DNA of 45,279 nt from Gemmatimonadota bacterium (GCA_026713285.1 JAPOOT010000289.1:1-45279); one strand, 5' to 3'. Counted from the first letter of the stretch, positions 11,034 through 39,810 are shown. A program made the numbers and translations. The notes: generated by a model from the letters alone, not told the origin.

Positions 11034-11098
11034 AGCGGCGGTCCCGCGAGGCCGGCCGCCGGCCTAAAGCAGTGGTCCCGCGAGACCGGCAGCCGCGA
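11031..11098. repeat. 34-bp imperfect tandem duplication starting at the SBP1 stop codon
   Basis: taaagcggcggtcccgcgaggccggccgcc / taaagcagtggtcccgcgagaccggcagcc. Confidence 0.75.
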
Positions 11099-11123
11099 CA
11101 GCACAAGGAACAGGACCGATTCG

Positions 11124-12548: not shown

Positions 12549-12584
12549 CCACCCGGGCCGAACGGCACCCTGAAACCCCACGCC

Positions 12585-13466: not shown

Positions 13467-13476
13467 GGAATGGAAG

Positions 13477-14310: not shown

Positions 14311-14371
14311 CGGACCAGGGAGAGCAGGATCAGGCCAACTGGATCGGGATAGCGGAATCGGTGGAGCAGGG

Positions 14372-15172: not shown

Positions 15173-15400
15173 AGACTGTTTTCTCGATCTTCGACTGTTT
15201 CTTCGATTTCATTCCTATGCGATGCAACCGCTGCAACCGATCCATGGACGAGGCAAAGCGCAGTTTTCACAAGCAGCGCAAGTGGCGGTGCCCTTCCTGC
15301 GGCCGCATCAGGTTCCAGCGCGCCAGGTCCAGGGGCCGGACCGCCCGGTCCGAGAAACACCGCCGCGGAGACTGAATGTCCCGGGCGATTTCCTGCCGCA

Positions 15401-16354: not shown

Positions 16355-16373
16355 TCGGTCGTCTTTCGTCGGA

Positions 16374-16402
16374 AAGCTAACCGCGGGGACGCGGCATGTC
16401 AA
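16374..16402 (-). promoter_or_regulatory. sigma70-type promoter for the DUF4835 gene
   Basis: TTGACA-17 nt-TAGCTT on the minus strand. Confidence 0.55.
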
Positions 16403-16460
16403 GCCTATCCCGCGCCCGCGCGTCGCGTACGGATCCCACGCGCTCCCACAGGCGCTGGCC

Positions 16461-16489
16461 TTGACACCCGGGTCCCGGTGCTGTATTTT
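16461..16489 (+). promoter_or_regulatory. sigma70-type promoter for the radical SAM gene
   Basis: TTGACA-17 nt-TATTTT. Confidence 0.55.
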
Positions 16490-16591
16490 GGCCGTCCGTA
16501 GTGGATACAGGCACGATTGAGCGGCGCGGTGCGGCGGCGGCGACCGGCCCGGCCTGAATACGCGGCCGATCAGCGCTTTCTGGAAAGGTAC

Positions 16592-18496
16592 ATGATCGAA
16601 CAAACTAAGGCGCAAACCCTCGCCCGCGAGCGCGGGACCATATACAAGAAACCGGACGGAAAGGCCGTTCGAATCGCCCTGGTGTATCCCAATACCTACT
16701 ACCTGGGCATGTCGAATCTGGGTTTTCAGACCATCTACCGGCACCTGAACGAACGGGTCGACGTGGTCTGCGAACGGGCTTTTCTCCCGGAACCTTCCGA
16801 CCTGGAAATCCTGTCCAGATCCCGCAAGCCGCTGGTTACGCTGGAAACGGGGCTGCCACTCGGTTCGTGCGACATTGTGGCCTTCTCCGTCTCCTTCGAG
16901 AACGACTACCCGAACCTGATCCGTATACTGGAACTCGCACGCATACCCGTACTCTCGGCTAACCGGACCCACTACGATCCGGTCGTGCTGATCGGCGGCG
17001 CGATTACCTACATCAACCCGGAGCCGCTGGCGGAATTCGCAGACGCGATGATCATAGGAGACGGCGAAGAGGCGGCCTACGCCTATATCGACCGCTATAT
17101 CGAGGACCGGGGCCTGGGCCGGGAACGCCACCTCGCCGGCGCCATGGCGCTGGCGGGTATGTATGTCCCTTCTCTGCAGCAGACCGCACCGGGCGACCGG
17201 GAGGGGCCGCCGGCCTCCGGACCGGCCGCGGATTCCGGATGCGAGGCCGAGGACGCCAGACCAACTGCTGATGCCGGACCGGCCGCGGACACCAGACCAG
17301 CTGCTGATGCCGGACCGGCCGCGGATTCCGGATGCGAGACCGCTGCGTTCGACGCGGAGCTTGCGCCCGCCGGCCGGATCGCCAATGCGCCCGCCGGCCG
17401 GATCGCCAAGCAGCAGGTGCGCGATTTCGAGGATTACCCCGCCCATTCCGCCGTCCTCACGCCCGACACCGAGTTTGGCGACATGCTGCTGATCGAGATC
17501 TCCCGCGGGTGTCCCCGCCGATGCCGCTTTTGCGCCGTGAGTTATGTCTATCCCAAATTCCGCGCTTTGAAGCCGGAAACGATACTCGACGTCATCCGTG
17601 CAAAAAATGCGACGCTTGCGCGCGACGGCCAGGAGGGATTGAAAGCGGTGGGCCTGGTCAGTTCGGCCATGTGCGACTACCCCCACCTGGACGAACTCTG
17701 TGCGGGCCTGGAAGAGACCGGGCTTCGCGTGGGGGTTTCGTCGGTTCGGGTAGACCTGGTCCCTGACAGCCTGCTTCGACTGATGCTGAAGACAGGGCTG
17801 CGAACCATGACCATCGCACCCGAGGCCGGTTCGGAACGGCTCCGCAAGGCGATCAACAAGCCCATATCCTCGGAGGAAATCCTGACTGGCGCCCGAAGGA
17901 TTCTCGAGAAGGGCATCAAGCATCTCAAGGTGTACTACATGGTCGGCCTGCCGACGGAGACCGACGCCGACGTCGAGGAACTCATCGATATGACGCGCCA
18001 GCTTGCCCGGCTTCAGAGGGCTTGCGGGGAACCGGGCGGCCGGCTGAGGTTGAGCATAAATCCCTTCGTGCCGAAGGCGTTGACGCCCTTCCAGTGGAGT
18101 CCCATGGCGTCTCCGCGGGAGGTCAAGCGCAAGCTGAACCACATCAAGAAGGCCCTGCGCGGCACGCCGGGCGTGGACGTCAAGCACGAGAGCCTGAAAT
18201 CCGCGTATTTCGAGGCCATCCTGTCCCGCGGCGGCCGGGAATTGAGCGGATTTCTGATGGAAACGGTGCGGCGGGACGGCGACTGGAAACGCGCGGCGGC
18301 GGAAACGGAGACGGATATCTCCCGATATCTCGGGGACATGGCGGACATGCAGTCGCTTCCCTGGGATTTCATATCCACGGAAAAGGAACATCACCGGCTC
18401 CAGTGGGAGTACCGGAAGACTCACAACCTGCCCCATCGCACCCGGCGGCCGGCAGCTCGCGTCAGCCGGACGGATGCGGGGCACCCCGCGGTCTGA
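16592..18496 (+). CDS. Radical SAM protein (TIGR03960-like, B12-binding-like N-domain) with a low-complexity insertion
   Basis: ALVYPNTYYLGMSNLG, EISRGCPRRCRFC CX3CX2C motif, IAPEAGSERLR, PFVPKALTPFQW. Confidence 0.88.
   Translation: MIEQTKAQTLARERGTIYKKPDGKAVRIALVYPNTYYLGMSNLGFQTIYRHLNERVDVVCERAFLPEPSDLEILSRSRKPLVTLETGLPLGSCDIVAFSVSFENDYPNLIRILELARIPVLSANRTHYDPVVLIGGAITYINPEPLAEFADAMIIGDGEEAAYAYIDRYIEDRGLGRERHLAGAMALAGMYVPSLQQTAPGDREGPPASGPAADSGCEAEDARPTADAGPAADTRPAADAGPAADSGCETAAFDAELAPAGRIANAPAGRIAKQQVRDFEDYPAHSAVLTPDTEFGDMLLIEISRGCPRRCRFCAVSYVYPKFRALKPETILDVIRAKNATLARDGQEGLKAVGLVSSAMCDYPHLDELCAGLEETGLRVGVSSVRVDLVPDSLLRLMLKTGLRTMTIAPEAGSERLRKAINKPISSEEILTGARRILEKGIKHLKVYYMVGLPTETDADVEELIDMTRQLARLQRACGEPGGRLRLSINPFVPKALTPFQWSPMASPREVKRKLNHIKKALRGTPGVDVKHESLKSAYFEAILSRGGRELSGFLMETVRRDGDWKRAAAETETDISRYLGDMADMQSLPWDFISTEKEHHRLQWEYRKTHNLPHRTRRPAARVSRTDAGHPAV
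17185..17410 (+). repeat. In-frame nested repeats inside the radical SAM gene
   Basis: ccggaccggccgcgga x3, ttccggatgcgag x2, gcgcccgccggccggatcgccaa x2. Confidence 0.85.
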
Positions 18497-18551
18497 TCCC
18501 GGGATTTGAAGCCGGGGCCAGACCATCATTCCAAGTCAGTGGAGGCGAAAG

Positions 18552-24660: not shown

Positions 24661-25947
24661 TCACTCGTTCATCTTGGGGTCGAGGGCGTCGCGAAGCCCA
24701 TCGCCCATCAACTGGAATCCGAGCATGGTGAGGGCGATCATGATGGCGGGAAAGGTCGCCAGGTGCCAGTAAGAACGGATATAGTTGGCGTTCTCCCCGA
24801 CCATCTGTCCCCAGCTCGGCGTCGGCGGGCTGATGCCGATGCCGATGAAACTCAGCCCGGCCTCCGCGAATATGGCGGAAGGGATCCCCAGGGCGAGTGC
24901 CACGATCAGCGGCGTCATACTGTTCGGCAGGATGTGGGTCACGACGATACGGAAATGGCTGCCGCCCATGGCCTTGGCGGCCCGGACGAATTCTTTTTCC
25001 TTCAAAGACAGAATCTGCCCCCTCAGGAGACGGCATACCCCTACCCATCCGGTCACCCCGATGGCCACGAAGATGTTGAATAACCCGGCCCCCAGCCACG
25101 ACATGATCAGGATGATGAAAAGCAGGCCCGGAAAGGCTGACATGATGTCTACGCCCCGCATGATGACGCTGTCCACGCGGCCTCCGGCGTACCCGGCCAG
25201 GGCGCCCAGGGGTACTCCGATGGCGAAGATGATGGCCTGCACGAGGACGCCCACCGTCATGGAAATCTCCGCGCCGTAGATGACCCGGCTGAAGAGATCG
25301 CGGCCCAGGCCGTCCGTGCCGAAGGGAAACATCCAGGACGGTTCCTGCCAGGCGACCAGGAAGTTCTGCTTGGTATAATGCAAAGGCGCGATCCAGGGCG
25401 CGAGCAGCGCCGTGTTGCTCAGCAGCAGGACCAGGAACAGCCCCACCAGGGAGAGCTTGTTGCGGGAAAACCGCCGGGTGGCGTCCGCCCAGAGCCCGCT
25501 GTCGTGTTTCTTGAAATACCGGTAGGCCCGCGGCCAGAGCAGGGTGAACTCCGTGGCCAGCGTGACGCGGAAGATCAGTCCCGCCCAGGAGAAGAAGGGT
25601 TCGAGACCCTCCCAGCTCATGGACTCCGACAGGCTTTCGGGTATGTCTTCCGTGCCGTAAGGGTACTGGTCCATCCAGGGTCCGAGCAGCCACCACGCAG
25701 CGAGCAAGGCGCCGGCGCCCAGGGCGGCGAAGAACAGTCTATGCTGGTACGCCCGGTGACAGAAGGACGCCCAACGCCCGGTTTCGTTCTTTCTTCCCAG
25801 GCGGTAGATTCGTGGCAGGCAGAGCACCAGCTGAATCGCCAGCGCGATCCGCCCCACCTCGAGGATCATGGTGTCCCAGCTCCATCCCAGGATGGCGCCC
25901 AGGACCCAGACGAGACTTGCGTCGCCCGGTGTGCCGATCGATTCCAT
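24661..25947 (-). CDS. Peptide ABC transporter permease (OppC/DppC-like) with N-terminal membrane extension
   Basis: RRFSRNKL, FGTDGLGRDLFSR, EFVRAAKAMG, GDGLRDALDPK. Confidence 0.9.
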   Translation of the reverse strand: MESIGTPGDASLVWVLGAILGWSWDTMILEVGRIALAIQLVLCLPRIYRLGRKNETGRWASFCHRAYQHRLFFAALGAGALLAAWWLLGPWMDQYPYGTEDIPESLSESMSWEGLEPFFSWAGLIFRVTLATEFTLLWPRAYRYFKKHDSGLWADATRRFSRNKLSLVGLFLVLLLSNTALLAPWIAPLHYTKQNFLVAWQEPSWMFPFGTDGLGRDLFSRVIYGAEISMTVGVLVQAIIFAIGVPLGALAGYAGGRVDSVIMRGVDIMSAFPGLLFIILIMSWLGAGLFNIFVAIGVTGWVGVCRLLRGQILSLKEKEFVRAAKAMGGSHFRIVVTHILPNSMTPLIVALALGIPSAIFAEAGLSFIGIGISPPTPSWGQMVGENANYIRSYWHLATFPAIMIALTMLGFQLMGDGLRDALDPKMNE

Positions 25948-25948
25948 G

Positions 25949-27259
25949 CTAGTCCTTCCGATACCGAATGCGGGGGTCTACCAGGGCGTACATGAGATCC
26001 GTAATCACGTAGATGACGACGATGAGCGACGACCAGAGCAGGGCCGTGGACATGATCATGGGGTAGTCCCGGGCGAATACGCTCGTGGTGAAATACCGCC
26101 CCAGGCCGGGAATGCGGAAGATCGTCTCAATAAAAAACGACCCGGTGATCAGGTTGGCCATCATCGGTCCCGCGATGGTAAGCAGGGGGATCAGGGCGTT
26201 CTTGAACACGTGCACCACCACGACCGAGAACTCGGTCAGGCCCTTGGCCCGGGCGGTGCGCACGTAGTCTGCCCGGATGGCTTCGATCATGTTCGACCGG
26301 GTGTATCTTGCCACGACGGCCATATCGCCGAGCGACAAGGCGATCACCGGCATGACCCAGTCCTTGGGCGAATTCCAGCCCCCCGTTTCAAATAAGTGCA
26401 GCCAGAGCGAGAACACGACGGTCAGGCCCACTGCGACGACGAAACTGGGCGTTACGATACTGAACACCGCCGTGAGCGAGGCGACGTAGTCTATCCATGA
26501 ATTCTGGTACACCGCCGCGAGAATACCCAGCAGCAGTCCGCCTGTGAGCGCCACGATCAGGGCCATGCTGCCCAGGTGGACGGATACGGGCCAGGCCTGG
26601 GCGATGAGTTCCTGGCAGGTCTTGCTCTGGTGCTGGAAGGAGTAGCCGAAGTCGCCTCTTACGACGTTGCTCACCCAGGAGATGTACTGAATGTGGAGCG
26701 GCTGGTCGAGATTGTACTTACGCATCAGGTTCGCCCGCACCTCCGGCGTCAGCGGTATGCCGCCGGTCTCGCCGCCGGCGTCGAAGGGACCGCCGGGCAC
26801 GGCGTGCATGATGGAAAAGGTGATGACGGAGACAGCGAAGAGTACGGGGAAGATCCAGAGAATGCGGCGGACCAGGTACCGGAAGCCCAGGTTCAGACCG
26901 AACAGGAAGATGCTGGTGATCGCTAGCATGATCAGCGTGCGTACCAGCATGACGTTCTGGGAATCGGTTCCCCACAGCGCCAGGCCCACGGCCGCCAGGG
27001 CAATGGTCCGCGCGGCCAGGTTCGGCACGCGGAATCGGCGCAGCAAGGTGGAGGCGGCGACGAACAGGAGAAGCCAGAGCGCGGCGAGGGCGGTGCCGAA
27101 CACGCCGAGTTGCGGAGCCGCGACGGCCAGGGCGACGATGGTGATCAACGTCTGGACGCCCTTGACGAAGGTTGCGTCAAGCTTGCGCCGGTCTCCCCAG
27201 TAACCCGCGGCCAGGACGAGCAACAGCCACAGGACGCCAATGATCCCTACTACGGGCAT
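25949..27259 (-). CDS. Peptide ABC transporter permease (OppB/DppB-like) with N-terminal membrane extension
   Basis: YLVRRIL, PGGPF, GDFGYSF, DYVRTARAKGL, DPRIRY. Confidence 0.9.
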   Translation of the reverse strand: MPVVGIIGVLWLLLVLAAGYWGDRRKLDATFVKGVQTLITIVALAVAAPQLGVFGTALAALWLLLFVAASTLLRRFRVPNLAARTIALAAVGLALWGTDSQNVMLVRTLIMLAITSIFLFGLNLGFRYLVRRILWIFPVLFAVSVITFSIMHAVPGGPFDAGGETGGIPLTPEVRANLMRKYNLDQPLHIQYISWVSNVVRGDFGYSFQHQSKTCQELIAQAWPVSVHLGSMALIVALTGGLLLGILAAVYQNSWIDYVASLTAVFSIVTPSFVVAVGLTVVFSLWLHLFETGGWNSPKDWVMPVIALSLGDMAVVARYTRSNMIEAIRADYVRTARAKGLTEFSVVVVHVFKNALIPLLTIAGPMMANLITGSFFIETIFRIPGLGRYFTTSVFARDYPMIMSTALLWSSLIVVIYVITDLMYALVDPRIRYRKD

Positions 27260-27497: not shown

Positions 27498-28190
27498 ATG
27501 GACTACCTGCTCAGTGGATTCCTGGAAGCGGTCCGTCTGCTTATGTCCGGCGAATCCGGCGTGTACACCATCGTCGGCGTTTCCGTTTTCGTCGCGGTGT
27601 CCGCGATCCTGCTGGCCTCCGTGATGGGATTGCCCGCTGGCTACTTCCTCGCGACGCACCGGTTTCGGGGCCAGCGGCTGGTAACGACAGTGCTCAACAC
27701 GTTACTGGCCATGCCAACCGTGGTGATCGGCCTCTTCGTGTATTCCCTGATCTCCCGGCGCGGCCCACTGGGCTTTCTGGAACTGTTGTATACACCTAAG
27801 GCCATGATCATCGGCGAGACGATCCTCGCCCTGCCCATCGTGGCCGCGTTCACATTGTCGGCTATCCGCGCCGTCGATTCACGGATCACGGAGACGGCCC
27901 TGACACTGGGCGCGACGACGGCTCAGACGGCCCGCACGCTCATATCCGAGGCCCGGTACGGAATCATGGCCGCGGTGGTCGCCGCCTTCGGCCGGGTGAT
28001 CGCCGAGGTGGGCGCGGCCATGATGCTGGGCGGCAACATCAAGGGGAGTACGCGGACCATGACGACGGCGATCGCCCTGGAGAGCAGCAAGGGGGAGTTC
28101 GGACTGGCCATCGCCCTGGGTATCATCCTGCTGCTGACGGCATTCGGCGCGAACATTCTCTTTCACTGGCTGCAGGGATTCGACGACTGA
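27498..28190 (+). CDS. tupB: Tungstate ABC transporter permease
   Basis: PTVVIGL, SRRGPLG, AFGRVIAEVGAAMMLGGNI, TRTMTTAIALE typical of TupB. Confidence 0.85.
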   Translation: MDYLLSGFLEAVRLLMSGESGVYTIVGVSVFVAVSAILLASVMGLPAGYFLATHRFRGQRLVTTVLNTLLAMPTVVIGLFVYSLISRRGPLGFLELLYTPKAMIIGETILALPIVAAFTLSAIRAVDSRITETALTLGATTAQTARTLISEARYGIMAAVVAAFGRVIAEVGAAMMLGGNIKGSTRTMTTAIALESSKGEFGLAIALGIILLLTAFGANILFHWLQGFDD

Positions 28191-29206
28191 TGGCCGATCC
28201 GATCATCGTGGGCGAGCATATTTCGCACCGTTACGGCGCCGGGTTTCATTTGCATGTCGATCGCCTCGCCCTGTCCGCCGCGAGAACCTATGCCGTTTAC
28301 GGGGCGAACGGATCGGGCAAGACGACGCTTTTGAACATACTCGCCCTGCTGACCCATCCGCAGGAGGGCCGGATCCTCCTCGACGGCCGGCCCGTGAACG
28401 ATTCCGATCCCGCCCGAAGCCGCGGGTACCGCCGCCGCGTCACGCTGCTCATGCAGCATGTCTACCTGTTCCGGTCCACCGTCTTCGATAACGTGGCGTC
28501 GGGCCTGCGGTTCCGCGGCGTCGCGAAGGAGGCGCTGGAAGAACGGGTGACGCGCATGCTGAGCAAGGTTGGCCTGGAAAAACTCGCCCACCGTTCCGCC
28601 CACAGCCTTTCGGGCGGCGAAGCCCAGCGCGCCGGCCTGGCCAGGGCACTGGTAACGGAACCCGACGTGCTGCTGCTCGACGAACCCACGGCCAGCGTCG
28701 ATGCGGCGCACGGCCGGCAGATCGAAGAGATACTCCGGGAAACCTGTAGACAACGGCGGATGACCGTGGTACTCTCGACACACCAGTACGACCAGGCCCA
28801 TCGCGTCGCCGACGAAGTACTGATCATGCGCGACGGACGCTTGATCGAGGCGGGGCCGGAGAACGTTTTCAAGGGGCGTATAGACGAATCGGTGGATGGA
28901 CCGGTTGCCAGGCTGGACTGCGGCGTAACGCTGCGCACGAACACGGTCGCGCGCGGAGATGCGCTTGTCGCCATTTCACCACGGGAAATCCAGTTGTCCC
29001 GGTCGCCCCACCCTTCGGAAGCCGCGAACAGGCTCGAAGGCGTCCTGAACGCCGCGGCGGTGGACGGAGACCGCATTCGCCTGGACGTGGACGCCGGCCT
29101 GCGGTTGACCGTACACGTTGCGCGGGCATCCTTCGCCGGTATGGGGCTTACCGTCGGGGACACGGTGTACGCCGCCATCGGAGCATCGGCAGTTCGGACG
29201 CCGTAA
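28190..29206 (+). CDS. tupC: Tungstate/molybdate ABC ATP-binding protein with TOBE domain
   Basis: GANGSGKT, LSGGE, LLLDEP, C-terminal TOBE-like segment; TGATG overlap with tupB. Confidence 0.8.
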   Translation: MADPIIVGEHISHRYGAGFHLHVDRLALSAARTYAVYGANGSGKTTLLNILALLTHPQEGRILLDGRPVNDSDPARSRGYRRRVTLLMQHVYLFRSTVFDNVASGLRFRGVAKEALEERVTRMLSKVGLEKLAHRSAHSLSGGEAQRAGLARALVTEPDVLLLDEPTASVDAAHGRQIEEILRETCRQRRMTVVLSTHQYDQAHRVADEVLIMRDGRLIEAGPENVFKGRIDESVDGPVARLDCGVTLRTNTVARGDALVAISPREIQLSRSPHPSEAANRLEGVLNAAAVDGDRIRLDVDAGLRLTVHVARASFAGMGLTVGDTVYAAIGASAVRTP

Positions 29207-30321: not shown

Positions 30322-30471
30322 CGCGTTAATGGAGATCGCGGACCGCCCGGCCGTCCATACCGCCGTGTCAGCGGGCCGCCGCACGGATCACACAATCCCG
30401 CAATCGGTCCGGCACAGATCGAATATCCCTGACCACTCACCCGGTTACCACGGGAACGCGAAGTGCGTCAT

Positions 30472-33400
30472 ATGAGAACCACACCCGTCCTCCTGGCCGG
30501 CCTCATCGTGCTGTGCGCCATATCCGCCTGCCAGACGTCCGGGGTCCGCGAGCGCGTGGCGTTCCAGGCCGAACCGGTCGTCGAAGGCCAGGTGGCCGGC
30601 GTGGTCGATTCCACGCGGATCCGGCAGACCATCGCCGACCTGGTGTCCTTCGGTTCCCGCGTGGCCGGCTACCCCGGGGCCACCGAAGCGGCCCACTACC
30701 TGGCCGGCCGCATGGACGAGATCGGACTGGAGGACGTGGAGATGGAAGAGTTCGTCGCTTCCGTCCCGCTGGACGAGGGCGGCGAACTGGTCATCCTGGA
30801 CGCCACGACCCTCGCATTCCCGTCGATTCCCCTCCACGCCGTGTGGCCCAACCTGGTACGCACCTCCACGACGCCACCGGCCGGAATCACGGGCATGCTG
30901 CACTACGTGGGCGCCGGTGATTGGACGGACTTCAACGGCATCGATCCAACCGGCGCCATTTTCCTGATGGACTTCAACTCCGGCGTGAACTGGCAACGCG
31001 CCGCCATGCTCGGCGCGGGCGCTGTGATTTTCGCGGAACCCGACCACACCACGCGGGTGGACGGCGAGGAGAAATACCTCCAGGTCCCCGTCAATTTCCC
31101 TCGATTCTGGATGGAGAAGGAATGGGCGGACCCGCTCGTGGCGTATCTTGAAGTCAACGGTCCCTTCACTGTCAGGACAAAGGGGCGCATGACGTGGAAA
31201 CGCCTCCCGGCCTACAATGTCATGGGGAAAATCACGGGAACGCACCCGGTGTTGAAGGAAGAAGCCATCGTGCTGGAATCCTATTATGATTCCATCTCTC
31301 CCGTGCCGGCCGTATCCCCCGGAGCGAACCAGGCATCGGGCGTAGCCGCGCTCCTGGAGATGGCCCGGTACTTCGCAGCCAATCCCCCTGCGCGTACCGT
31401 GTATTTCCTGGCAACCTCCGGGCACTTCCTGTCCCTCAGCGGCGTGAACGACTTCACGAACCGGCATACGCGCAAGACCCCCTATTTCGCGGAGCAGATC
31501 GAAGAGCCGATCAACATGAAGCTCTTCGCCGGGATCGACCTCTCGAGCGCCCGGGACCAGATCGGCGTTTATTATGCCGGCATCCTCTTCGCCGGGAACT
31601 CCTTCGAAAAACAACGGTTTTTCACACCTTTCGGCCGGACCTTCATGGGTTACGCGCAGGAGGTGATCCGTCGCGGGGTTTTCCCTTCCGACGCGCTGAT
31701 GAACGTGATCACGCCCTCCCAGGGCATACAGAGTACGGAGTTCTTTCCGGCGGGCAACATCGCGCTGGACGCGGAACTGGTCTTCTGGACGGGTTTCCCC
31801 GCGCTCTCCTTTGCCACGGTTTTCGACGTCCGCGAGTACGTAGACACCCCCCTGGACGATATGGAACGGGTGAACATCCGCAACGTGTATACGCAGGCCG
31901 TGCTGTTGACGGAACTATTCGGGCGGGCTGTCAACGACCCCATGCTGTTTCCGGACTTCAAGATGCAGCTCGACGATCGTTTCGTGCGCGGACGCATCCG
32001 GGTGGTCGAGTTCGATCCCCGGGAAGACTATATCCCCAGCAAGCCCAAGCCCGGTGCCGTGGTCCGGTTCCGCCGTTACAACAAGAGCATCAGCGGGGTC
32101 AAGAACGAGATCTTCGTGGTGGCGGACAGCATGGGCGTGGCCGAAAGCACCGAGCTGGAAGCGGGACGCACCTATCCTACCGAGGGATACGTCATGGATC
32201 CCGATACGGGGGACATTATCTACGCGCCGGACCGGGGTCCCTACGGGGAAGGGGCTTATCCCCTCGAGATTACAATGGACTGGGTGGACAAGGAAAAGCC
32301 CACGGTAGTCTTCCGTTCCGATGCGACCAACCTGTACGACCTCGTGGATCCGAGGTTCCTGACCCGGCTCAACGAGGCCGTGCTGCTGGATGAGTCGGGC
32401 AATCCGCCGCTCGAGTGGGGCATGACCTTTCAGGAGGGCGGCTGGACCACGGGTTTCTCCTACGAGGAAGACACGGCCGTCCTTTTCACGCCGCCGGAAA
32501 GCCGGTTCAAGGTCACCATGTCGAGCGGACTGTTCGGCCGCCGCCTGATCCTGACCAACGCCGGTGAAGACCATCCGGAAGGCATCGGTTTCGAGTCGGG
32601 GATCGGCGCGATTCCCCTGACTTCGTACCAGGTCGCGCGGGACCTGTGGCACCTGGACGAGGCGCGGATCGCCGCACTCAAATCCGTGGGGGTAAGCAAC
32701 GTCCGGCTGGACGAGTTCCACCAGGAAGCCGGACGCCTGCTGGACCTGGCCGAATCGGCCCGTCAGGACCTGCAGTGGGACCGCTTTATAAAGTACGCCC
32801 GGGCCGCCTGGGGATACGAGTCCAGGGCGTACCCCGACGCGACGGGAACGGCCAACGACGTGGTGCGGGGCGTCCTGTTCTACATGGTACTGGTGATTCC
32901 CTTCGCCTACGCACTCGAGCGGCTGGTCTTCGGTTTCGCGAATGTCTACAAGCGGATCGCCATGTCCTTTGCCATCTTTCTCGCGGCCTACGGCGTGCTG
33001 CGATTCACCCACCCGGCGTTCCAAATTACCACGGCGCCCGATATCGTCCTTCTCGCCTTTATAACCTTCGTCCTGGCCGCCGTGGTCATCTGGCTCATCT
33101 CCCAGCGGTTCAGCCAGACCATGCGGGAGTTCCGGCAGCATACGCACAGCGTGCAGGCCACCGACGTGCGCCGTTCGAGCGCGTTGGCTACGGCCTTCGC
33201 CCTCGGCATCGGGAACATGCGCAAGCGCAAGGCCCGGACGCTGCTGACCTGCGCCACGCTCGTGCTCCTGGTATTCACCGTGCTGTCCTTTACTTCCGTA
33301 CAGACCTACTTGCGGATCCAGAAAGTGAGCACGGACGCGGAATCCGCCTACACGGGTTTCCTGGTCCGGAACCCAAACTGGGCGCCGCTGCAGAAGCAGA

Positions 33401-35151
33401 CGCACCAGTACGTCCTGTCGGAATTCGGGTCGACAGAGGCCGAAGACGAGGACATCACCATCGTGCCCAGGTCGTGGTACGCCGGTACCGCGCCGGGGGT
33501 GAATACCTACATCAAGGTCGAGCATGACGCCGCGGACAGTTCCGCCCGGTCCACCTACGCGTCGGCCATCCTGGGCCTGCTGCCGGACGAGCGGACGGTC
33601 AGCGGCCTGGACCGTATCCTGACGGCGGGCAGGTGGTTCGAGGGGGATGAAAGGGACGTGTGCATCCTTCCCGTCGAGATGGCGCGGCTTCTCGGGATGT
33701 CGGAAGCGGACGCAGGTCAACAGGAAATCAGTATCTTCGGCAAACCCTTTACGGTCATTGGCCTATTCGACTCGGCCGCAATGGACAGGATCACCGACCT
33801 GGACGACGAGCCGCTCACCCCCGTGGATTACACGGCGACGGGGCGCGATCTGATCACCGAGCTTGCCATGATGGATTACGATGAGGAACCGGTGCAAATG
33901 GCCCGGTTCGAACACCTCCCGGCCGCGAATCTGATCCTTGCGCCCCATGCCTACGTAAACGACGTCGGGGGAACGCTCCGGTCCGTCGCGGTCCGTTTCC
34001 CCTCGGATGATGGCGCCCTCGACCGGATCGAACGCTTCATGCAGCGGCTGGGGATACCCGTGGTGGCCTCCGTGGGCGGAGAGGTCGCCGTGTTCAGCGC
34101 CATGGCGCTGAGTTCGCTGTCGGGCCTGGGCAACCTGTTCATCCCAATGGTGGTTGCCGCCCTGATCATCCTGAACACCATGATGAACGCCGTGTATGAA
34201 CGCTTCAGCGAAATCGGCGTATACAGCGCCGTGGGCCTGGCCCCGGCGCATATTGGCGCGTTGTTCATGGCCGAAGCCGCCATGTACGCCGTGATCGGGG
34301 GCATGTCCGGCTACCTCATCGGGCAGACCGTTGCCCGCGGTATCACGGAATACGAGATGCTTGCGGGCTTGACGCTGAACTATTCATCCCTGTCCGCGGT
34401 GGCCTCGACGGCCATGGTCATGGTGGTGGTCATGCTCTCGACGATTTATCCAGCGCGCAAGGCATCCCAGATGGCCGTTCCGGACGTCAACAGGCAGTGG
34501 TCCTTCCCCGATCCCGAAGGCGACGACTGGCGTTTCGAGTTTCCCTTCACCATAAGTAGCACGGAGACGCTCGGCCTGTGTGCTTATCTGACCCGGTTCT
34601 TCGAGTCCTACGGCGAGAGTACGCTGGGGAGTTTCATGACGGACGAGGTGAGCCTGACGGGCAGAAACGGCGGATCAGGCGGTGCGGGCCGCGCGACGGA
34701 AGCGGATGGGAATCCGCCCGGTAGAGATGTCCCGGTCAACGACGCCGCGGACCTTGAATCCGCTTCGGGCGCGGCCACTGATTCCGCGGCCCGCGGAAAC
34801 TTCGAGTCGGCAGCCGGCATGGCCACGTACGAAATTACAATGAAGACCTGGCTGGCGCCCTACGACACGGGGGTGAGCCAGCGGGTGACCCTTCACGCGT
34901 CGCCCGCCGAGGACGAACACGACCTGTACGCCGTGTGGGTGCACATCTATCGCCTGAGCGGCGACGTGGATTCGTGGCAACGCCTGAACCGCCGCTTCCT
35001 GAACGTGCTGCGCAAGCAGTTCCTGGTCTGGCGTACCGTGGACCAGGAGGTCAAAACGGTCTACGCGGGTGAGGGGCGGGAGATGATTGGTGCGGGCGCG
35101 GGGACTGGCCCGCGTACGGAGACTGGTCCAGGTACGGTGGAACCGGCCTGA
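30472..35151 (+). CDS. Large membrane protein: PA/M28 peptidase-like ectodomain fused to a MacB/FtsX-like permease
   Basis: ISAC lipobox, SRVAGYPG, NVMGKITG, YYDS...PGANQASG; GNMRKRKARTLLT and AVYERFSEIGVYSAVGL FtsX motifs. Confidence 0.88.
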   Translation: MRTTPVLLAGLIVLCAISACQTSGVRERVAFQAEPVVEGQVAGVVDSTRIRQTIADLVSFGSRVAGYPGATEAAHYLAGRMDEIGLEDVEMEEFVASVPLDEGGELVILDATTLAFPSIPLHAVWPNLVRTSTTPPAGITGMLHYVGAGDWTDFNGIDPTGAIFLMDFNSGVNWQRAAMLGAGAVIFAEPDHTTRVDGEEKYLQVPVNFPRFWMEKEWADPLVAYLEVNGPFTVRTKGRMTWKRLPAYNVMGKITGTHPVLKEEAIVLESYYDSISPVPAVSPGANQASGVAALLEMARYFAANPPARTVYFLATSGHFLSLSGVNDFTNRHTRKTPYFAEQIEEPINMKLFAGIDLSSARDQIGVYYAGILFAGNSFEKQRFFTPFGRTFMGYAQEVIRRGVFPSDALMNVITPSQGIQSTEFFPAGNIALDAELVFWTGFPALSFATVFDVREYVDTPLDDMERVNIRNVYTQAVLLTELFGRAVNDPMLFPDFKMQLDDRFVRGRIRVVEFDPREDYIPSKPKPGAVVRFRRYNKSISGVKNEIFVVADSMGVAESTELEAGRTYPTEGYVMDPDTGDIIYAPDRGPYGEGAYPLEITMDWVDKEKPTVVFRSDATNLYDLVDPRFLTRLNEAVLLDESGNPPLEWGMTFQEGGWTTGFSYEEDTAVLFTPPESRFKVTMSSGLFGRRLILTNAGEDHPEGIGFESGIGAIPLTSYQVARDLWHLDEARIAALKSVGVSNVRLDEFHQEAGRLLDLAESARQDLQWDRFIKYARAAWGYESRAYPDATGTANDVVRGVLFYMVLVIPFAYALERLVFGFANVYKRIAMSFAIFLAAYGVLRFTHPAFQITTAPDIVLLAFITFVLAAVVIWLISQRFSQTMREFRQHTHSVQATDVRRSSALATAFALGIGNMRKRKARTLLTCATLVLLVFTVLSFTSVQTYLRIQKVSTDAESAYTGFLVRNPNWAPLQKQTHQYVLSEFGSTEAEDEDITIVPRSWYAGTAPGVNTYIKVEHDAADSSARSTYASAILGLLPDERTVSGLDRILTAGRWFEGDERDVCILPVEMARLLGMSEADAGQQEISIFGKPFTVIGLFDSAAMDRITDLDDEPLTPVDYTATGRDLITELAMMDYDEEPVQMARFEHLPAANLILAPHAYVNDVGGTLRSVAVRFPSDDGALDRIERFMQRLGIPVVASVGGEVAVFSAMALSSLSGLGNLFIPMVVAALIILNTMMNAVYERFSEIGVYSAVGLAPAHIGALFMAEAAMYAVIGGMSGYLIGQTVARGITEYEMLAGLTLNYSSLSAVASTAMVMVVVMLSTIYPARKASQMAVPDVNRQWSFPDPEGDDWRFEFPFTISSTETLGLCAYLTRFFESYGESTLGSFMTDEVSLTGRNGGSGGAGRATEADGNPPGRDVPVNDAADLESASGAATDSAARGNFESAAGMATYEITMKTWLAPYDTGVSQRVTLHASPAEDEHDLYAVWVHIYRLSGDVDSWQRLNRRFLNVLRKQFLVWRTVDQEVKTVYAGEGREMIGAGAGTGPRTETGPGTVEPA

Positions 35152-35720: not shown

Positions 35721-36030
35721 GCCTTGGTGATCTTTGGTAGGCTACCCAATCTTTCATAAGAGTATAGCATCCCTAGAACACTGTTGTGTCGACGACACCG
35801 TGCAATAGCGAGTGGTTGGAGGATTTGACGTATCCTATAAACTGAGTTGACCCCGTTTAGTACGTATGAATTTGTGTACAACGAGGAGTGTTCGACACAA
35901 CTCCAAGAAATGTGAACCTGTCTACAAACCGGTAATCTTGGTTTTATGTGCACCGGGTAAAGTCAGTCCGCGTGGGTATGACAGCGTTTATCGAAAAGCT
36001 CGGCCGTATGAGGATCAAGGAGTTGGCGTG

Positions 36031-36831
36031 ATGGCGAGAGTCCGAAAGTCAACTGCAATTGAACGATTGCAGAGGTTGGTTGATGAGGCTTCAGAGCTGG
36101 ATATGGAGGATGATAGCTCTCAGGAAGTTCAAAAATGGATACAGGACGTTTTTACCGCTTTTATCAACATATTCGGTGAGGATAGTTCTCAGTTTTCACG
36201 ACTTCCGCAAAGTCACAAAACAACCCCAAGTGGGGTTCGTGAATACCTGAGATCAATGGTTTCCTGCGTCGCGTCTAGTCTCGATGAGATCAAGTACTTT
36301 CGTGAGGATGAAACAGAAACTGTGAAACAACCCTCAGAACAGGGTGACTTAAAAGCACCAGATAAGGACTGTTACGACCAGGGATCGGCGACCAAAAAAG
36401 TCTTTGTCGTTCATGGTCACGACGAGGCCGTCCTGCAGGCGGTTGCGAGATTTCTAGAAAAGCTGAAACTCGAACCAGTAATCCTGCACGAACAGGCGAA
36501 TCAAGGCCGCACGATCATAGAGAAATTTGAGGATCATTCGGATGCGAGTTTTGCCGTGGTTCTGCTGACACCTGACGACATAGGCGCGGCCGTTACGGAT
36601 AAGGCCGATCTACGGCACCGAGCTCGTCAGAACGTAATTCTCGAACTCGGATTCTTCATTGGGAAGTTGGGTCGCAACAGGGTCTGTGCTCTGAAATCGC
36701 GTTGTGTCGAAAATCCGTCGGACGTTGATGGGATGGTCTATATCAACCTCGACGAGCCAGATGCATGGAAGACCGGACTCGTGCGGGAGTTAATGGCAGC
36801 TGGTTTCGCCATCGACGCTAACTGGGTTTAG
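36031..36831 (+). CDS. TIR-like nucleotide-binding domain protein (PF10137-type) with helical N-domain
   Basis: KVFVVHGHD, ILHEQANQGRTIIEKFE, FAVVLLTPDD, RARQNVILELG, PSD; AAGGAG RBS at ~36018. Confidence 0.9.
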   Translation: MARVRKSTAIERLQRLVDEASELDMEDDSSQEVQKWIQDVFTAFINIFGEDSSQFSRLPQSHKTTPSGVREYLRSMVSCVASSLDEIKYFREDETETVKQPSEQGDLKAPDKDCYDQGSATKKVFVVHGHDEAVLQAVARFLEKLKLEPVILHEQANQGRTIIEKFEDHSDASFAVVLLTPDDIGAAVTDKADLRHRARQNVILELGFFIGKLGRNRVCALKSRCVENPSDVDGMVYINLDEPDAWKTGLVRELMAAGFAIDANWV

Positions 36832-36836
36832 CAGCC

Positions 36837-37142
36837 ATGAACGCACAGTTGTCGATTTCCAAAACCGAATTGTCAGCCTATTGTAAAAATCATGGCATCC
36901 GACGATTAGCAATTTTCGGATCGGTGCTCCGGCCAGATTTTGGCCCGGAGAGCGATATCGACGTACTGGTCGAGTTCGCACCGGGTCACACTCCCGGTCT
37001 GCTGGGCATGGCCGGATTGGAGATTGAACTATCCGAATTGTTTGGCGGTCGGAAGGTGGACCTGCGGACTCCTGAGGAATTGAGTCGTTATTTTCGACAG
37101 AAGGTCATTGACACGGCAGAAGTTCTATATGTGCAGGGATGA
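36837..37142 (+). CDS. Minimal nucleotidyltransferase (MNT/MntA antitoxin)
   Basis: FGSVLRPDFGPESDIDVLVEF (GSX10DXD), GRKVDLRT. Confidence 0.92.
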   Translation: MNAQLSISKTELSAYCKNHGIRRLAIFGSVLRPDFGPESDIDVLVEFAPGHTPGLLGMAGLEIELSELFGGRKVDLRTPEELSRYFRQKVIDTAEVLYVQG

Positions 37143-37254
37143 CGAAATCCCATTACAGCACATGTTGGACGCCGAGCGGGAGGCAGTGTGTTTTTCACGA
37201 GGACACAGTTGGTTGCAGCCGCTAAGTCAAGCCTACCATATCGCGCGTGAATAG
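37129..37254 (+). pseudogene. Truncated HEPN/HepT (DUF86) toxin remnant
   Basis: Overlaps the MNT 3' end; MCRDDEIPLQHMLDAEREAVCFSRG resembles a DUF86 N-terminus, then drifts and stops at 41 aa with no RX4HXY. Confidence 0.75.
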
Positions 37255-37613
37255 TAATCCAGGATGGTGGTGTCCGAAGTCACGAGCAGGCATTTGTTCA
37301 ATTTGGCCGTGGCCACGATCGTGCGGTCGACAGGATCCCGGTGATCCCAGTCCAGTTCGAGATTCCCGATCCATGTCCACACGTCCACTGGACGTACTTC
37401 AATCCGTTCGGTCCGTTCCAGATTTTATGCGAAGTCCTGAATGGACAGGGGCAACACAAGATCGGCCTTTTTCACCCTAACGCCGATCTCCCAGATCGAG
37501 ATCGAACTGATGCACACGCGGTCGGCTTGTGTAATCGTCTGGTCGTCGATTTTGGACAGGCGTTCGGGATCCAGTGTCCAGAAAACAAGCGCGGACGTAT
37601 CCAGTACGACCAT
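37233..37613 (-). pseudogene. vapC: VapC (PIN domain) toxin with one in-frame TAA
   Basis: MVVLDTSAL...SSISIWEI; TAA at 37427-37425; frame continues NLERTERIEV...HRDPVDRTIVATA...LVTSD...AIW to TAG at 37233. Confidence 0.9.
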
Positions 37614-37843
37614 TACGTTTCATCCCATTCGTCGATTGTCGGTGTGTCGATGTCTCCATGATAGACGATCTTTCCCCGCAGTCCATCGAAGATCCTGTCA
37701 ACCGATTGCTTTGGCTTTATGGGTTTTACACTGAGAACTGGACTCCGGTTATGCGTTACGATCAGATCCTCGCCCGATTCCTCGATTTCTCGAAATACCC
37801 GAAGCATATTGGCCTTCAGCTTGCTCTTCGATTTGAACAGCAT
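37613..37843 (-). CDS. Phd/YefM family antitoxin
   Basis: SKSKLKANMLRVFREIEESGEDLIVTHNRSPV; TAATG coupling to vapC; GGAG RBS. Confidence 0.88.
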   Translation of the reverse strand: MLFKSKSKLKANMLRVFREIEESGEDLIVTHNRSPVLSVKPIKPKQSVDRIFDGLRGKIVYHGDIDTPTIDEWDET

Positions 37844-37874
37844 ATGGACTCCAGTCTGTTTAGCAAAAGACTAT

Positions 37875-37884
37875 GGTCATGACC
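37875..37884. promoter_or_regulatory. Palindrome GGTCATGACC, likely Phd operator
   Basis: Perfect 10-bp palindrome about 30 nt upstream of the antitoxin start. Confidence 0.45.
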
Positions 37885-38013
37885 CTGGTTATATTCGAAG
37901 GATTTCCTATGAACCGTCAAGGATTTATCTCATTCTCGGCAACTTAGAAGTCGGATTCCGTGCGACTATTCCGACTGTATAGGTATGATGTTCAATTCAA
38001 TGTGTAAGACAGG

Positions 38014-38042
38014 TTGACAATCGACGTCCCGACGTCTAATAT
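38014..38042 (+). promoter_or_regulatory. sigma70 promoter of the MTase (leaderless), with two GACGTC sites in the spacer
   Basis: TTGACA-17 nt-TAATAT, 6 nt then ATG 38049; no RBS. Confidence 0.7.
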
Positions 38043-38048
38043 TAAAAT

Positions 38049-39185
38049 ATGGCCACTAACACCGAAAGATACGCTCCTGGTCGAGTACGAGATGCGATAA
38101 TCCGGGTGATGAGACTAACGACAGAAGGTTTGTCTGCTAAACAGATCGCAGCGAGAGTTGCAAAGATAGAGGGCCACATGCCTGAGTCCTCGATCAGGTC
38201 TTATCTTCGTCTGAACACTCCAGAGACATTTGTTCGTGAAAGGAGGGGGGTATACCGCCTTAAGGTAGATCATGACAGCAGTCTGCAACGAACGATGTTC
38301 AGGAGTCCACCTTGGCAGGAACCCTTCAAGTTTGGATCGGCTACATTGTTTCATAGTGAATGTTTGGATTGGCTGGACGCAAGAGATGACCAATCAATCC
38401 ACGCGATAGTTACCGATCCACCTTACGGTCTGCAGGAATACACAGCGAAAGAGCAGACGAAACTCCGAAATAGGAAGGGGGGGATCTGGAGGATTCCTCC
38501 TGCATTTGATGGCCACGTTCGTTCGCCGTTACCAAGATTCACTACTTTAACCGATGAACAAAAACTTTATCTTCGGGAGTTTTTCTATATCTGGTCTCGT
38601 CTACTGATCCCCAAGTTGGTACCTGGCGCCAACGTGGTCGTTGCCTCCAATCCACTACTCTCCCACATTGTCGCCGGCGCTATAGCGGATTCGGGGCTTG
38701 AAAGACGCGGCGACATCGTCAGGCTTGTTATGACTATGCGTGGCGGTGATCGGCCAAAAGCGGCACATGATGAATTCAAGGATGTCAGTGTGCTCCCCAG
38801 ATCAATGTGGGAGCCATGGCTGATATTCCGTAGGCCTGTGGAGGGAAGAGTACAGGACAACCTCAGAAAATGGAAAACGGGAGGGTTTCGACGGCCGACT
38901 GGACTCAAGCCATTCGGAGATGTTATTCAATCTTCCCCGACCAGAAAAAATGAGAAGGCGATAGCACCTCACCCCAGCCTTAAGCCACAATCCTTCTTAC
39001 GACGCCTCGTGAGGGGTGTTCTTCCACTAGGTGAAGGTATAGTTGTCGATCCCTTTGCCGGCGCTGGCTCTACTCTCGCGGCCGCTGAAGCAGTTGGGTA
39101 CGAGTCAATCGGAATAGAAAAGGATTCTCTGTACTTCAATATGGCCAAGGAAGCACTACAGCCACTAGCCGAGCTCGAAGTGTAG
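38049..39185 (+). CDS. Beta-class N4/N6 DNA methyltransferase with an N-terminal winged-HTH-like domain
   Basis: IVTDPPYG (motif IV) precedes HPSLKP and DPFAGAGST (motif I); N-terminal LSAKQIAARV...SSIRSYLR...RRGVYRL. Confidence 0.92.
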   Translation: MATNTERYAPGRVRDAIIRVMRLTTEGLSAKQIAARVAKIEGHMPESSIRSYLRLNTPETFVRERRGVYRLKVDHDSSLQRTMFRSPPWQEPFKFGSATLFHSECLDWLDARDDQSIHAIVTDPPYGLQEYTAKEQTKLRNRKGGIWRIPPAFDGHVRSPLPRFTTLTDEQKLYLREFFYIWSRLLIPKLVPGANVVVASNPLLSHIVAGAIADSGLERRGDIVRLVMTMRGGDRPKAAHDEFKDVSVLPRSMWEPWLIFRRPVEGRVQDNLRKWKTGGFRRPTGLKPFGDVIQSSPTRKNEKAIAPHPSLKPQSFLRRLVRGVLPLGEGIVVDPFAGAGSTLAAAEAVGYESIGIEKDSLYFNMAKEALQPLAELEV

Positions 39186-39204
39186 GGACTGAAGGAAACC
39201 TCAA

Positions 39205-39810
39205 TTACCTGTCTAGGTAAATCCAGTTCTCGCGAAGTTTACTCACGCCAAAGCGGTCAAGTGTGGCAGTTCGTGTGCCGAGTTCCCCTCTCGGATTGCG
39301 TCTAAAGTCTTCGATGGTTACCCTAGATAGGTAGACTTCCCTAAACGTCATTGGAAGTCTTGATGAAGAGGGTTCGGTTTTGTTATCGACCTCGTATACA
39401 AATACACACATCCACTGGTCGCGCGCGCCATGTGTATCGACCGCACCGCCTTTTTTCTTCGTGGTTTTGATTTCAAGACCCTGATCTCCCGACTTAACGG
39501 AGTTTTCTGCGTAAACTCCCTGAACGAGAAGGTCAGGATGGCCATTGAAGTAGTTGTTTTCAGTAAGCACCCTTGAATGTTTAGCCAGACTGGCCGTCAG
39601 CATGTCCGATAGCACACCAGACATGATAGCGGGTCTCAACATATCGTCAAGCCGTTCCAGTCCGCGGTCTACCAGATGAGAATTGACATCGTGGAAGAAA
39701 TCATAAACGTCCTGCATTGCCGACTCGAAATCCATAATGCGGAGCTGATATGGTAAAGTCGAGTCAGGATTGAATGATTCTCTTGCTACGACATTTCTGG
39801 ATTGTTTGAT
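39205..39810 (-). CDS. Putative type II restriction endonuclease (PD-(D/E)XK), convergent with the MTase; RBS points to an ATC start at 39810 (first ATG 39735)
   Basis: GHPDLL...GLEIK motif; frame open up to 39828; AAGGAG 8 nt before ATC. Confidence 0.7.
   Translation of the reverse strand: MKQSRNVVARESFNPDSTLPYQLRIMDFESAMQDVYDFFHDVNSHLVDRGLERLDDMLRPAIMSGVLSDMLTASLAKHSRVLTENNYFNGHPDLLVQGVYAENSVKSGDQGLEIKTTKKKGGAVDTHGARDQWMCVFVYEVDNKTEPSSSRLPMTFREVYLSRVTIEDFRRNPRGELGTRTATLDRFGVSKLRENWIYLDR

Follow-up and report, generated by a model that had tools for sequence, protein, structure and literature searches.

What does an envelope protein do that joins an M28 peptidase-like domain to a MacB/FtsX-type permease and is encoded with no partner ATPase beside it? 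The question is raised by a gene at positions 30472..35151, on the plus strand, of a 45,279-nucleotide stretch of DNA from a Gemmatimonadota bacterium (GCA_026713285.1 JAPOOT010000289.1:1-45279). The whole stretch is called the window below and supplies the coordinates, and T is our working name for the giant gene and its protein. We lean towards the view that T forms the large subunit of an ATP-binding cassette (ABC) mechanotransducer of type VII, powered in trans and working with OPT-fold permeases; it would be the substrate-facing subunit of an uncharacterised envelope machine of the MacB/LolCDE/FtsEX kind. Type VII ABC systems perform mechanical work in the envelope, not classical transport, and to our knowledge only a few have been worked out, namely MacAB-TolC, LolCDE, FtsEX, BceAB, HrtBA and YbbAP-TesA. 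T falls in a large and so far undescribed branch of these proteins, whose carriers are uncultured bacteria of the Latescibacterota, the Zixibacteria and related groups; NCBI labels many of them Gemmatimonadota. An earlier reading of the DNA, made from the sequence alone (hereafter the sequence-only reading), knew of no characterised function for this architecture, and our full-text literature searches, outside the subscription journals, likewise found no paper describing it.

Architecture of T

The reading frame of T begins with ATG at 30472, and an in-frame GTG three codons 5' of it, at 30463, is an alternative start. Its GC content at the three codon positions (0.62/0.45/0.82) matches that of real genes in this DNA, and orthologues in related genomes show 72-98% identity. 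Pfam matched residues 249-333 to Peptidase_M28 (PF04389, E 5.7e-11), covering only profile positions 1-81 of 193, residues 923-1117 to MacB_PCD at 25.1 bits, slightly below the 27-bit cut-off, and residues 1224-1334 to FtsX (E 1.2e-14). NCBIfam gave weak partial matches only, to MacB, LolC/E, ADOP and FtsX models. The protein was then modelled as two halves on an alignment of 63 family sequences. The ectodomain model (residues 21-795) had a predicted local distance difference test score (pLDDT) of 87.8 and a predicted template-modelling score (pTM) of 0.88; the C-terminal model (residues 780-1559) had a pLDDT of 71.8, with the membrane helices as its weakest part. The features of T, including its transmembrane (TM) helices, are as follows.

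30472..35151, plus strand: whole gene T, one intact open frame of 1559 amino acids plus stop
30472..30531, plus strand: signal peptide ending in the lipobox I-S-A-C (Cys20), read from the sequence
30568..31944, plus strand: M28 aminopeptidase-fold domain, about residues 33-491 (Pfam, PDB alignments, model, fold matches)
30823..31191, plus strand: PA insert, about residues 118-240, boundaries approximate (alignment to the PA-M28 aminopeptidases 2ek8 and 6hc6)
31969..32571, plus strand: beta-rich middle domain, about residues 500-700 (strands in the model)
32620..32829, plus strand: three-helix periplasmic stalk, about residues 717-786 (model helices 697-766, offset +20)
32836..33147, plus strand: three extra TM helices, about residues 789-892 (model; hydropathy peaks 797-815 and 858-876)
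33175..33297, plus strand: amphipathic N-terminal helix and FtsX TM1, about residues 902-942 (model; hydropathy peak 925-943)
33307..34101, plus strand: MacB-type periplasmic core domain, about residues 946-1210 (model pLDDT about 90)
34114..34476, plus strand: FtsX TM2-TM4 and major coupling-helix motif (Pfam FtsX; alignment to MacB 5lil)
34510..35040, plus strand: cytoplasmic tail domain, about residues 1347-1523 (model; helix-grip-like alpha/beta fold)

This layout had been proposed from the sequence (a lipobox, a PA/M28 ectodomain, a long middle region, three extra TM helices, a MacB/FtsX module and a tail), and the Pfam matches and the models support it. The lipobox too was confirmed on reading: I-S-A-C stands at residues 17-20 after a hydrophobic stretch and agrees with the lipobox pattern, [LVI][ASTVI][GAS]C. 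An N-terminal signal peptide occurs throughout the wider T family, the lipobox being confined to the clade of the window. T is a predicted lipid-anchored protein with seven TM helices.

The C-terminal half is that of a type VII permease. A periplasmic core domain lies between TM1 and TM2, and its identity is clear from structure: in the VIA search the model matched the MacB core domain 3ftj at Z 13.2 (root-mean-square deviation (rmsd) 3.3, 178 residues aligned) and YknZ 5f9q at Z 12.5. The MacB_PCD match of Pfam begins at residue 923, within the TM1 region. Foldseek matched the C-terminal model to MacB, LolCDE, HrtBA, YtrEF and YbbAP. The FtsX domain has four TM helices and a major coupling helix between TM2 and TM3, whose motif Y-E-R-F-S-E-I-G (residues 1242-1249) aligns with T-E-R-T-K-E-I-G of MacB 5lil; E1243, R1244, E1247, I1248 and G1249 are invariant or almost so in the T family. 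A passage of a MacB review (PMC5985334) describes the major coupling helix as transmitting the movement of the nucleotide-binding domain (NBD) to the transmembrane domains.

The tail after TM4 is broken up by a low-complexity loop at about residues 1401-1448, and many of its residues are invariant across the family. Its VIA matches at Z 8-9 comprised the Bet v1-like 1vjh, the StART-like 6cay, AHSA1, KA1 and the BamC N-domain, and 3ost was also matched. The helix-grip class suggested by the model is a lead, not a finding.

Regarding the ectodomain, the first approximately 470 residues of the model form a complete M28 alpha/beta aminopeptidase fold that includes a PA insert. Active bacterial enzymes matched it best: the aminopeptidase AAP (1rtq; VIA Z 29.1, rmsd 2.6, 269 residues aligned), 2ek8 (VIA Z 28.7; Foldseek E 2.9e-24), BSAP (6hc6) and PaAP (8ac7). 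Next came transferrin receptor 1 (TfR1, Z 25.6), glutaminyl cyclases (Z about 25) and GCPII (Z 23.7), and a GPI-transamidase subunit matched at Z 19.8. The sequence alignment of T to 2ek8 and 6hc6 spans query residues 131-303, a Pfam PA match is present in a T paralogue of this genome (contig C281), and W125, P126, N127, L128 and T131 of the insert are invariant in the family. The beta-rich domain (about residues 500-700) and the stalk (about 717-786) were hardly probed by the fold searches.

The domain had been labelled nicastrin/nicalin-like, and a superposition on aminopeptidases and nicalin had been proposed; the fold searches matched the model to AAP, TfR1 and GCPII. Nicastrin and nicalin were outside the top 50 matches of both Foldseek against the PDB and a wide VIA search, lists that could still miss a family ranked below them. 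Because neither protein is in either list, we take the label as an analogy and not as a relationship, the nearest solved folds being the active bacterial PA-M28 aminopeptidases.

The proposed partner ATPase and the operon of relatives

The sequence-only reading was right that no partner ATPase lies near T. A tblastn search of the whole genome with the LolD-type ATPase found a sole match in the window, at 28217-28843 (29.7% identity). The match lies in an ABC ATPase gene at 28190-29206, whose product has ABC_tran and TOBE domains and which shows start/stop coupling with a BPD_transp_1 importer permease; because of its TOBE domain, this type I importer coupling and the 29.7% identity to the LolD type, it was rejected as the partner of T. 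It is the only ABC ATPase near T; no MacB-type ATPase was found in the 45,279 nucleotides, and none is fused to T. Over the whole genome, 28 FtsX-domain matches were counted, and the other MacB-type ATPases adjoin permeases of their own.

The other possibility that had been raised, that the partners are encoded elsewhere, is the one to which related genomes point. In these, T shares an operon with a minimal FtsX and a LolD-type ATPase, and in the genome of the window this pair lies together at the end of contig C193. The best NCBIfam matches of the C193 ATPase are LolD, MacB, DevA, YbbA and FtsE, and one coupling-helix motif is common to T (ERFSEIG), the minimal FtsX (TERYREIG) and MacB (TERTKEIG).

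Relatives of T were found in at least 792 stretches of species-representative genomes, and 72 loci were kept for neighbour counts; one locus with a relative, L026, bears the label of a Gemmatimonas phototrophica metagenome-assembled genome. The counts come from a caller based on codon-position GC or from tblastn. This caller misses genes in low-GC islands and the minimal FtsX in two loci (L085, L086). Apart from T, the genes of the module and their counts are listed below.

c1, polytopic protein of about 660-810 amino acids, directly downstream of T: 37/72 loci
c2, DUF6785+DUF6784 protein, beside T: 27/72 loci
c3, soluble protein without family, beside T: 19/72 loci
PqqD-like, peptide-chaperone-like protein, beside T: 19/72 loci
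LolD-type ATPase orthologous to the one on C193, no more than 10 kb from T: 4/72 loci (L022, L030, L032, L066)
Minimal FtsX of about 220 amino acids, within 10 kb of T: 3/72 loci (L030, L032, L066)

L022 also holds a minimal FtsX, which was seen in the first gene calls and missed by the GC-based caller. The collinear order on one strand is c2, T, c1, c3, PqqD-like gene, minimal FtsX and ATPase; five further genomes have all seven genes (L100, L101, L102) or six of them (L103, L104), and the operon-bearing relatives span several phyla. The c3-PqqD pair accompanies either T-c1 or the minimal FtsX with the ATPase. Specifically, many Latescibacterota have T-c1-c3-PqqD at one place and minimal FtsX with ATPase at another, and a genome labelled Zixibacteria (L094) has c3, PqqD, minimal FtsX and ATPase together. 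The minimal FtsX adjoins the ATPase in each of the 17 loci in which the two were called, and the ATPase was present in 19/19 loci, with 67-90% identity to the copy of this genome. With a mean column identity of 63%, this ATPase is among the most conserved proteins encountered. In short, it is co-encoded with T in the compact operons of relatives and co-occurs with it across genomes, and in the present genome it is on C193, neither fused to T nor in the window.

These observations suggest that the C193 ATPase would power T in trans and that T most likely pairs with the minimal FtsX, giving a machine in which one half has a large ectodomain and the other is bare. Among type VII permeases there are homodimers, heterodimers and fused pairs with one or two periplasmic domains, and BceB and LolC/LolE provide asymmetric precedents, as set out in parts of the MacB review (PMC5985334). 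Complex prediction for the minimal FtsX and T residues 885-1345 gave scores of 0.31, 0.32 and 0.31, the mark being 0.32 and one control reaching 0.23; this outcome weighs on neither side of the binding question.

Co-occurrence was counted on a larger scale. T was present in 33/33 genomes searched of the phylum of the window, usually as three paralogue lineages. In a second phylum, from which 151 genomes were searched, 137 of these matched the C-terminal half of T and 130 the minimal FtsX: 129 had both, 8 T only, 1 the minimal FtsX only (a 1.0-Mb genome) and 13 neither (Fisher p 1.3e-12, with the caution that related genomes are not independent). One minimal-FtsX orthologue was detected in 5/5 T-bearing genomes tried from other groups. 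As for the size of the family, the family-specific middle region of T (residues 491-900) matched 1230 representative clusters (50% identity) at E up to 1e-3, and 265 at 1e-30. Family variants of 1800-3050 amino acids were also observed, with extra domains before or within the M28 head and with the M28 and FtsX parts kept: P0133 has LysM and an NMB0315-like domain in front of its M28 domain, P0200, P0205 and P0217 have added Big_5 Ig-like domains, and P0165 has a rubredoxin domain at 634-679.

The most constant neighbours of T are themselves membrane proteins. Both c1 and the DUF6785/6784 protein are polytopic and about 660-800 amino acids long. The nearest Atlas clusters of c1 are annotated as 'Peptide transporter family', with PF03169 in 15-33% of members (score 0.98); Pfam OPT was reached by 2/25 c1 members (best E 2.7e-5), and hhalign related c1 to DUF6785 with a probability of 93% (E 3.3e-7). 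A search of PDB sequences with the c1 profile gave no match at E up to 1. Altogether, there is moderate support, from sequence comparison, for c1 and DUF6785/6784 being distant OPT-superfamily proteins. In addition, a natural fusion of T with DUF6785/6784 exists, full-length at 2083-2120 amino acids, from several sources and in a 56-member cluster. It surfaced through the family variants; a word-indexed search for longer DUF6785 fusion proteins with the copy of this genome, which is a weak test, found none. The survey of homologue neighbourhoods for conserved membrane proteins, which the sequence-only reading had proposed, has thus found two OPT-fold-like proteins, one of them fused to T in one lineage. 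Full-text searches outside the subscription journals found no paper on DUF6785/DUF6784 or on a tie between OPT and type VII ABC proteins. For c3, only unnamed Atlas clusters were found, and no Pfam or NCBIfam match. The PqqD-like gene prompted the idea of a gene cluster for a ribosomally synthesised and post-translationally modified peptide; it was rejected, as no radical-SAM gene, precursor peptide or maturation enzyme was found among the conserved neighbours.

The constancy of these OPT-like neighbours, which are sometimes fused to T, bears on a rather improbable alternative, in which T would be an ATPase-independent, passive scaffold or receptor that docks on OPT-fold permeases and uses its FtsX module as a membrane anchor only. 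It would account for the lack of an ATPase beside T in the window and within 10 kb in 68/72 loci, and for the eight genomes with T and no detected minimal FtsX; judging from the model, the C-terminal tail could replace the NBD contact. However, the coupling-helix motif, which contacts the NBD, is invariant in the family and is hard to reconcile with a mere anchor, compact operons join T and the LolD-type ATPase in distant lineages, and T and the minimal FtsX co-occur strongly.

In the genome of the window every part of the module is present and the parts are dispersed. The c3 and PqqD-like genes end contig C312, after recN; because this pair and the pair on C193 both end contigs, c3, the PqqD-like gene, the minimal FtsX and the ATPase are probably contiguous. 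There are three copies of c1 (C237, C184, C172), one of which adjoins recD2 as in Latescibacterota. A full-length T paralogue on C281 has about 41% identity, and a second paralogue, in the canonical c2-T ... c1 layout, is divided between the ends of contigs C474 and C184. In a quick maximum likelihood tree of 63 full-length T proteins, which has long branches and an uncertain deep order, the clade of the window's T is sister (Shimodaira-Hasegawa-like approximate likelihood ratio test, 88) to a clade that resides in T-c1-c3-PqqD operons, and the C281 paralogue belongs to the other main clade.

Two side observations concern the copies of these genes. First, the 3.4-Mb genome has about 15 or more DUF6785/DUF6784 paralogues against 3-4 T copies, with two in tandem on C111 and the others on C403, C420, C219, C449, C483, C224, C474, C117, C115, C439, C9, C445 and further contigs. 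Second, two complete relatives have broken T orthologues, one with an in-frame TGA (G014:C1:3612483-3617081) and one that is divided between two frames, with an overlap (residues 2-849 and 844-1542; G024:C1:2608504-2613035); sequencing errors, pseudogenes or real splits could be the cause.

The rebuilt M28 site and the proposed mechanism

The peptidase domain was compared with solved M28 enzymes, and residues were counted in 228 T-family members of at least 1200 amino acids. Alignments turned GHLDS into SYYDS, GA(N)DD into GANQ and AEE into GHF; the change of YHT to VDT and the placing of D458 at the position of the last His were assigned by motif position. The degenerate motifs that had been read from the sequence (SYYD, GANQ, GHF and VDT) are therefore borne out. 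The mapping follows the AAP zinc-ligand numbering. Y271 aligns with the first His ligand, with the neighbouring Asp kept (D273); Q287 aligns with the bridging Asp, the motif here being shorter by one residue; H318-F319 align with the Glu-Glu pair, that is, general base and ligand; and D356 stands, by motif position, at the fourth ligand, where Asp is kept. Four of the five zinc ligands and the general base are replaced and D356 alone is kept. The replacements recur through the family as follows.

Position 271: Y in 187/228 members
Position 272: Y in 206/228 members
Position 273: D in 222/228 members
Position 287: Q in 153/228 members
Position 318: H in 219/228 members
Position 356: D in 212/228 members
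Position 458: D in 206/228 members

The canonical H/D/E/D/H ligand set was found in 0/228 members. Most have E at 286 and H at 319; the T of the window has N286 and F319. From these alignments, the canonical di-zinc peptidase site is lost in T. Because the replacement residues are almost invariant in the 228 members, the site looks remodelled under selection and kept since before the family radiation, not decayed; it may be a ligand-binding pocket or a different metal or catalytic centre. The sequence-only reading had called the domain a dead peptidase. The loss of the canonical site stands, and 'dead' is too strong a word, with Y272, D273, H318, D356 and D458 each present in 206-222 of 228 members.

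The same conservation bears on an unlikely reading, in which the ectodomain would be an active hydrolase whose metal or catalytic site is non-canonical (e.g. H318, D356, D458 and E/N286). T would then be a membrane-anchored, mechanically gated peptidase, resembling a type VII ABC system fused with its periplasmic hydrolase. Near-invariance at the old ligand and base positions (H318 in 219 of 228, D356 in 212, D458 in 206, D273 in 222) speaks for it, as do the two His residues at the former Glu-Glu position and the Glu at 286 in most members; by homology to AAP, these residues surround the metal centre. A precedent is YbbAP-TesA, a type VII ABC system that is described as working with a hydrolase (PMC12646458). 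Nevertheless, no member has the canonical ligand set, N286 and F319 leave the T of the window fewer candidate ligands than most members have, and the conservation is equally consistent with a binding pocket.

For T as a trans-powered type VII subunit, the mechanism that we propose builds on such a pocket. ATP-driven movement would reach the M28/PA head through the stalk, and the rebuilt pocket would hold a peptide-like ligand or hand it over to the two OPT-fold membrane proteins; peptide as the substrate of T is what we infer. The T of the window would be one of three paralogue lineages that probably share a single motor. A more specific version of this proposal, which we put forward as a tentative and rather doubtful one, is a hybrid of primary and secondary uptake, in which the LolD-type ATPase, by way of an asymmetric pair of FtsX proteins, would mechanically drive a periplasmic receptor that has the rebuilt aminopeptidase fold. 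This receptor would capture oligomeric substrates, either peptides or glycopeptides, and load two proton-driven OPT-fold permeases, and its paralogues would share one motor and differ in specificity. If an ATP motor, a rebuilt peptidase fold and OPT-type permeases do act together, primary and secondary transport would be linked in a new manner, and a function would be assigned to DUF6785/DUF6784 and to many genes now annotated as 'M28 family peptidase'.

A degenerate peptidase fold driven by a type VII ABC system may also serve the cell wall. On the model of FtsEX with EnvC, PcsB or RipC, T would belong to a cell-wall or envelope machine whose degenerate peptidase domain binds peptidoglycan stems or lipoproteins; we hold this to be about as improbable as the passive scaffold. 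FtsEX is reported to regulate a degenerate peptidase-fold protein (PMC7668044, PMC11627006), and P0133 carries LysM and the NMB0315-like domain. The ATPase is extremely conserved and single-copy and, in this genome, is placed after recN, beside secA and the gene of a sigma-70-family sigma factor, among housekeeping genes; T itself was present in all 33 genomes of its phylum. Yet no peptidoglycan enzymes were found among the conserved neighbours, the constant partners are transporter-like polytopic proteins, 3-7 T copies per genome would be unusual for a division factor, and LysM occurred in 1/16 variants scanned. The several rivals are not fully separate: both the active-hydrolase and the cell-wall alternatives overlap with the reading of T as a trans-powered type VII subunit.

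Several points weigh against this preferred reading. First, there are 3-7 T matches per genome against a single minimal FtsX/ATPase pair, and T may form dimers of its own instead of pairing with the minimal FtsX. Second, the tail occupies the place of the minor coupling helix and might alter or block NBD docking. Third, the OPT relationship is remote at the level of sequence, with 2/25 c1 members reaching Pfam OPT and no match among PDB sequences. Fourth, LysM in one variant points to the cell wall and not to peptide uptake. Regarding co-occurrence, the 13 genomes without both genes may be a single clade and hence represent one evolutionary event; because five of the eight genomes with T and no detected minimal FtsX are 3.3-4.9 Mb in size, incompleteness may not explain all eight. 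Finally, T has no operon link to partner genes in the window, and such genes were found within 6 kb in 0/11 tree rows of the window's own clade.

Other features of the window and comparison with known systems

The remaining observations concern other parts of the DNA. Directly downstream of the cupin gene, positions 35866-39735 form a low-GC island (0.49-0.50 against about 0.62), which looks like an inserted defence island. It has genes for a CAP12/Pycsar-type TIR effector-domain protein (35866-36831), for a small nucleotidyltransferase (36837-37142) and for an N6/N4 DNA methylase (38049-39185), besides small open reading frames (ORFs) without a name, and its layout is shared with the closest relative (L011). 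On the minus strand, 24661-27259 encodes two OppC/OppB-type permeases, each with an N-terminal extension of about 125-150 amino acids before the Pfam match; the pair lies between rho and a small importer pair, with no binding protein or ATPase adjoining, and the arrangement is syntenic with T in the window's genus. Also on the minus strand, 15401-18529 encodes a protein of 1042 amino acids that Pfam matches only near its C-terminus, to DUF4835 (residues 770-1035); the codon-position GC of this gene (0.72/0.45/0.69) differs from that of the genes around it. At the locus L078 (contig C237 of this genome), the longest-ORF caller gave a minus-strand ORF of 1721 amino acids at 10583-15748 and the codon-GC caller small low-GC3 pieces; this is either a foreign-composition gene or a non-coding or mobile region.

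Compared with the known type VII ABC systems (MacB, LolCDE, FtsEX-EnvC, BceAB and YbbAP-TesA), T shares the four-helix FtsX domain, the MacB-type periplasmic core domain and the major coupling helix, as well as a LolD-type ATPase in the T operon of relatives and the general theme of coupling to a periplasmic hydrolase-fold protein. Unlike in these systems, T itself carries the hydrolase-fold domain in cis, as an N-terminal fusion joined by way of a beta domain, a stalk and three additional TM helices; TM4 is followed by a helix-grip-like tail, and the likely second half of the machine is a 220-amino-acid FtsX with almost no outer domain. Moreover, T is constantly accompanied by two OPT-fold proteins, a PqqD-like protein and the soluble c3, and its ATPase is unlinked in this genome.

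With the PA-M28 aminopeptidases of Vibrio/Aeromonas (AAP, 1rtq), Aneurinibacillus (2ek8), B. subtilis (6hc6) and P. aeruginosa (8ac7), T has the fold and the PA insert in common, whereas its ligand positions are Y, Q, (H)F/H, D and D instead of H, D, (E)E, D and H. TfR1, a non-catalytic M28 fold, resembles T in being without the canonical zinc ligands. In contrast to all of these, the domain of T sits within a seven-TM ABC-type protein. Similarly, c1 and DUF6785/6784 resemble the OPT superfamily (PF03169) in being polytopic, in their weak Pfam OPT matches and in their mutual relationship, but 23/25 c1 members fall below Pfam OPT, and these proteins, unlike that superfamily, are tied by gene order and by fusion to a type VII ABC protein.

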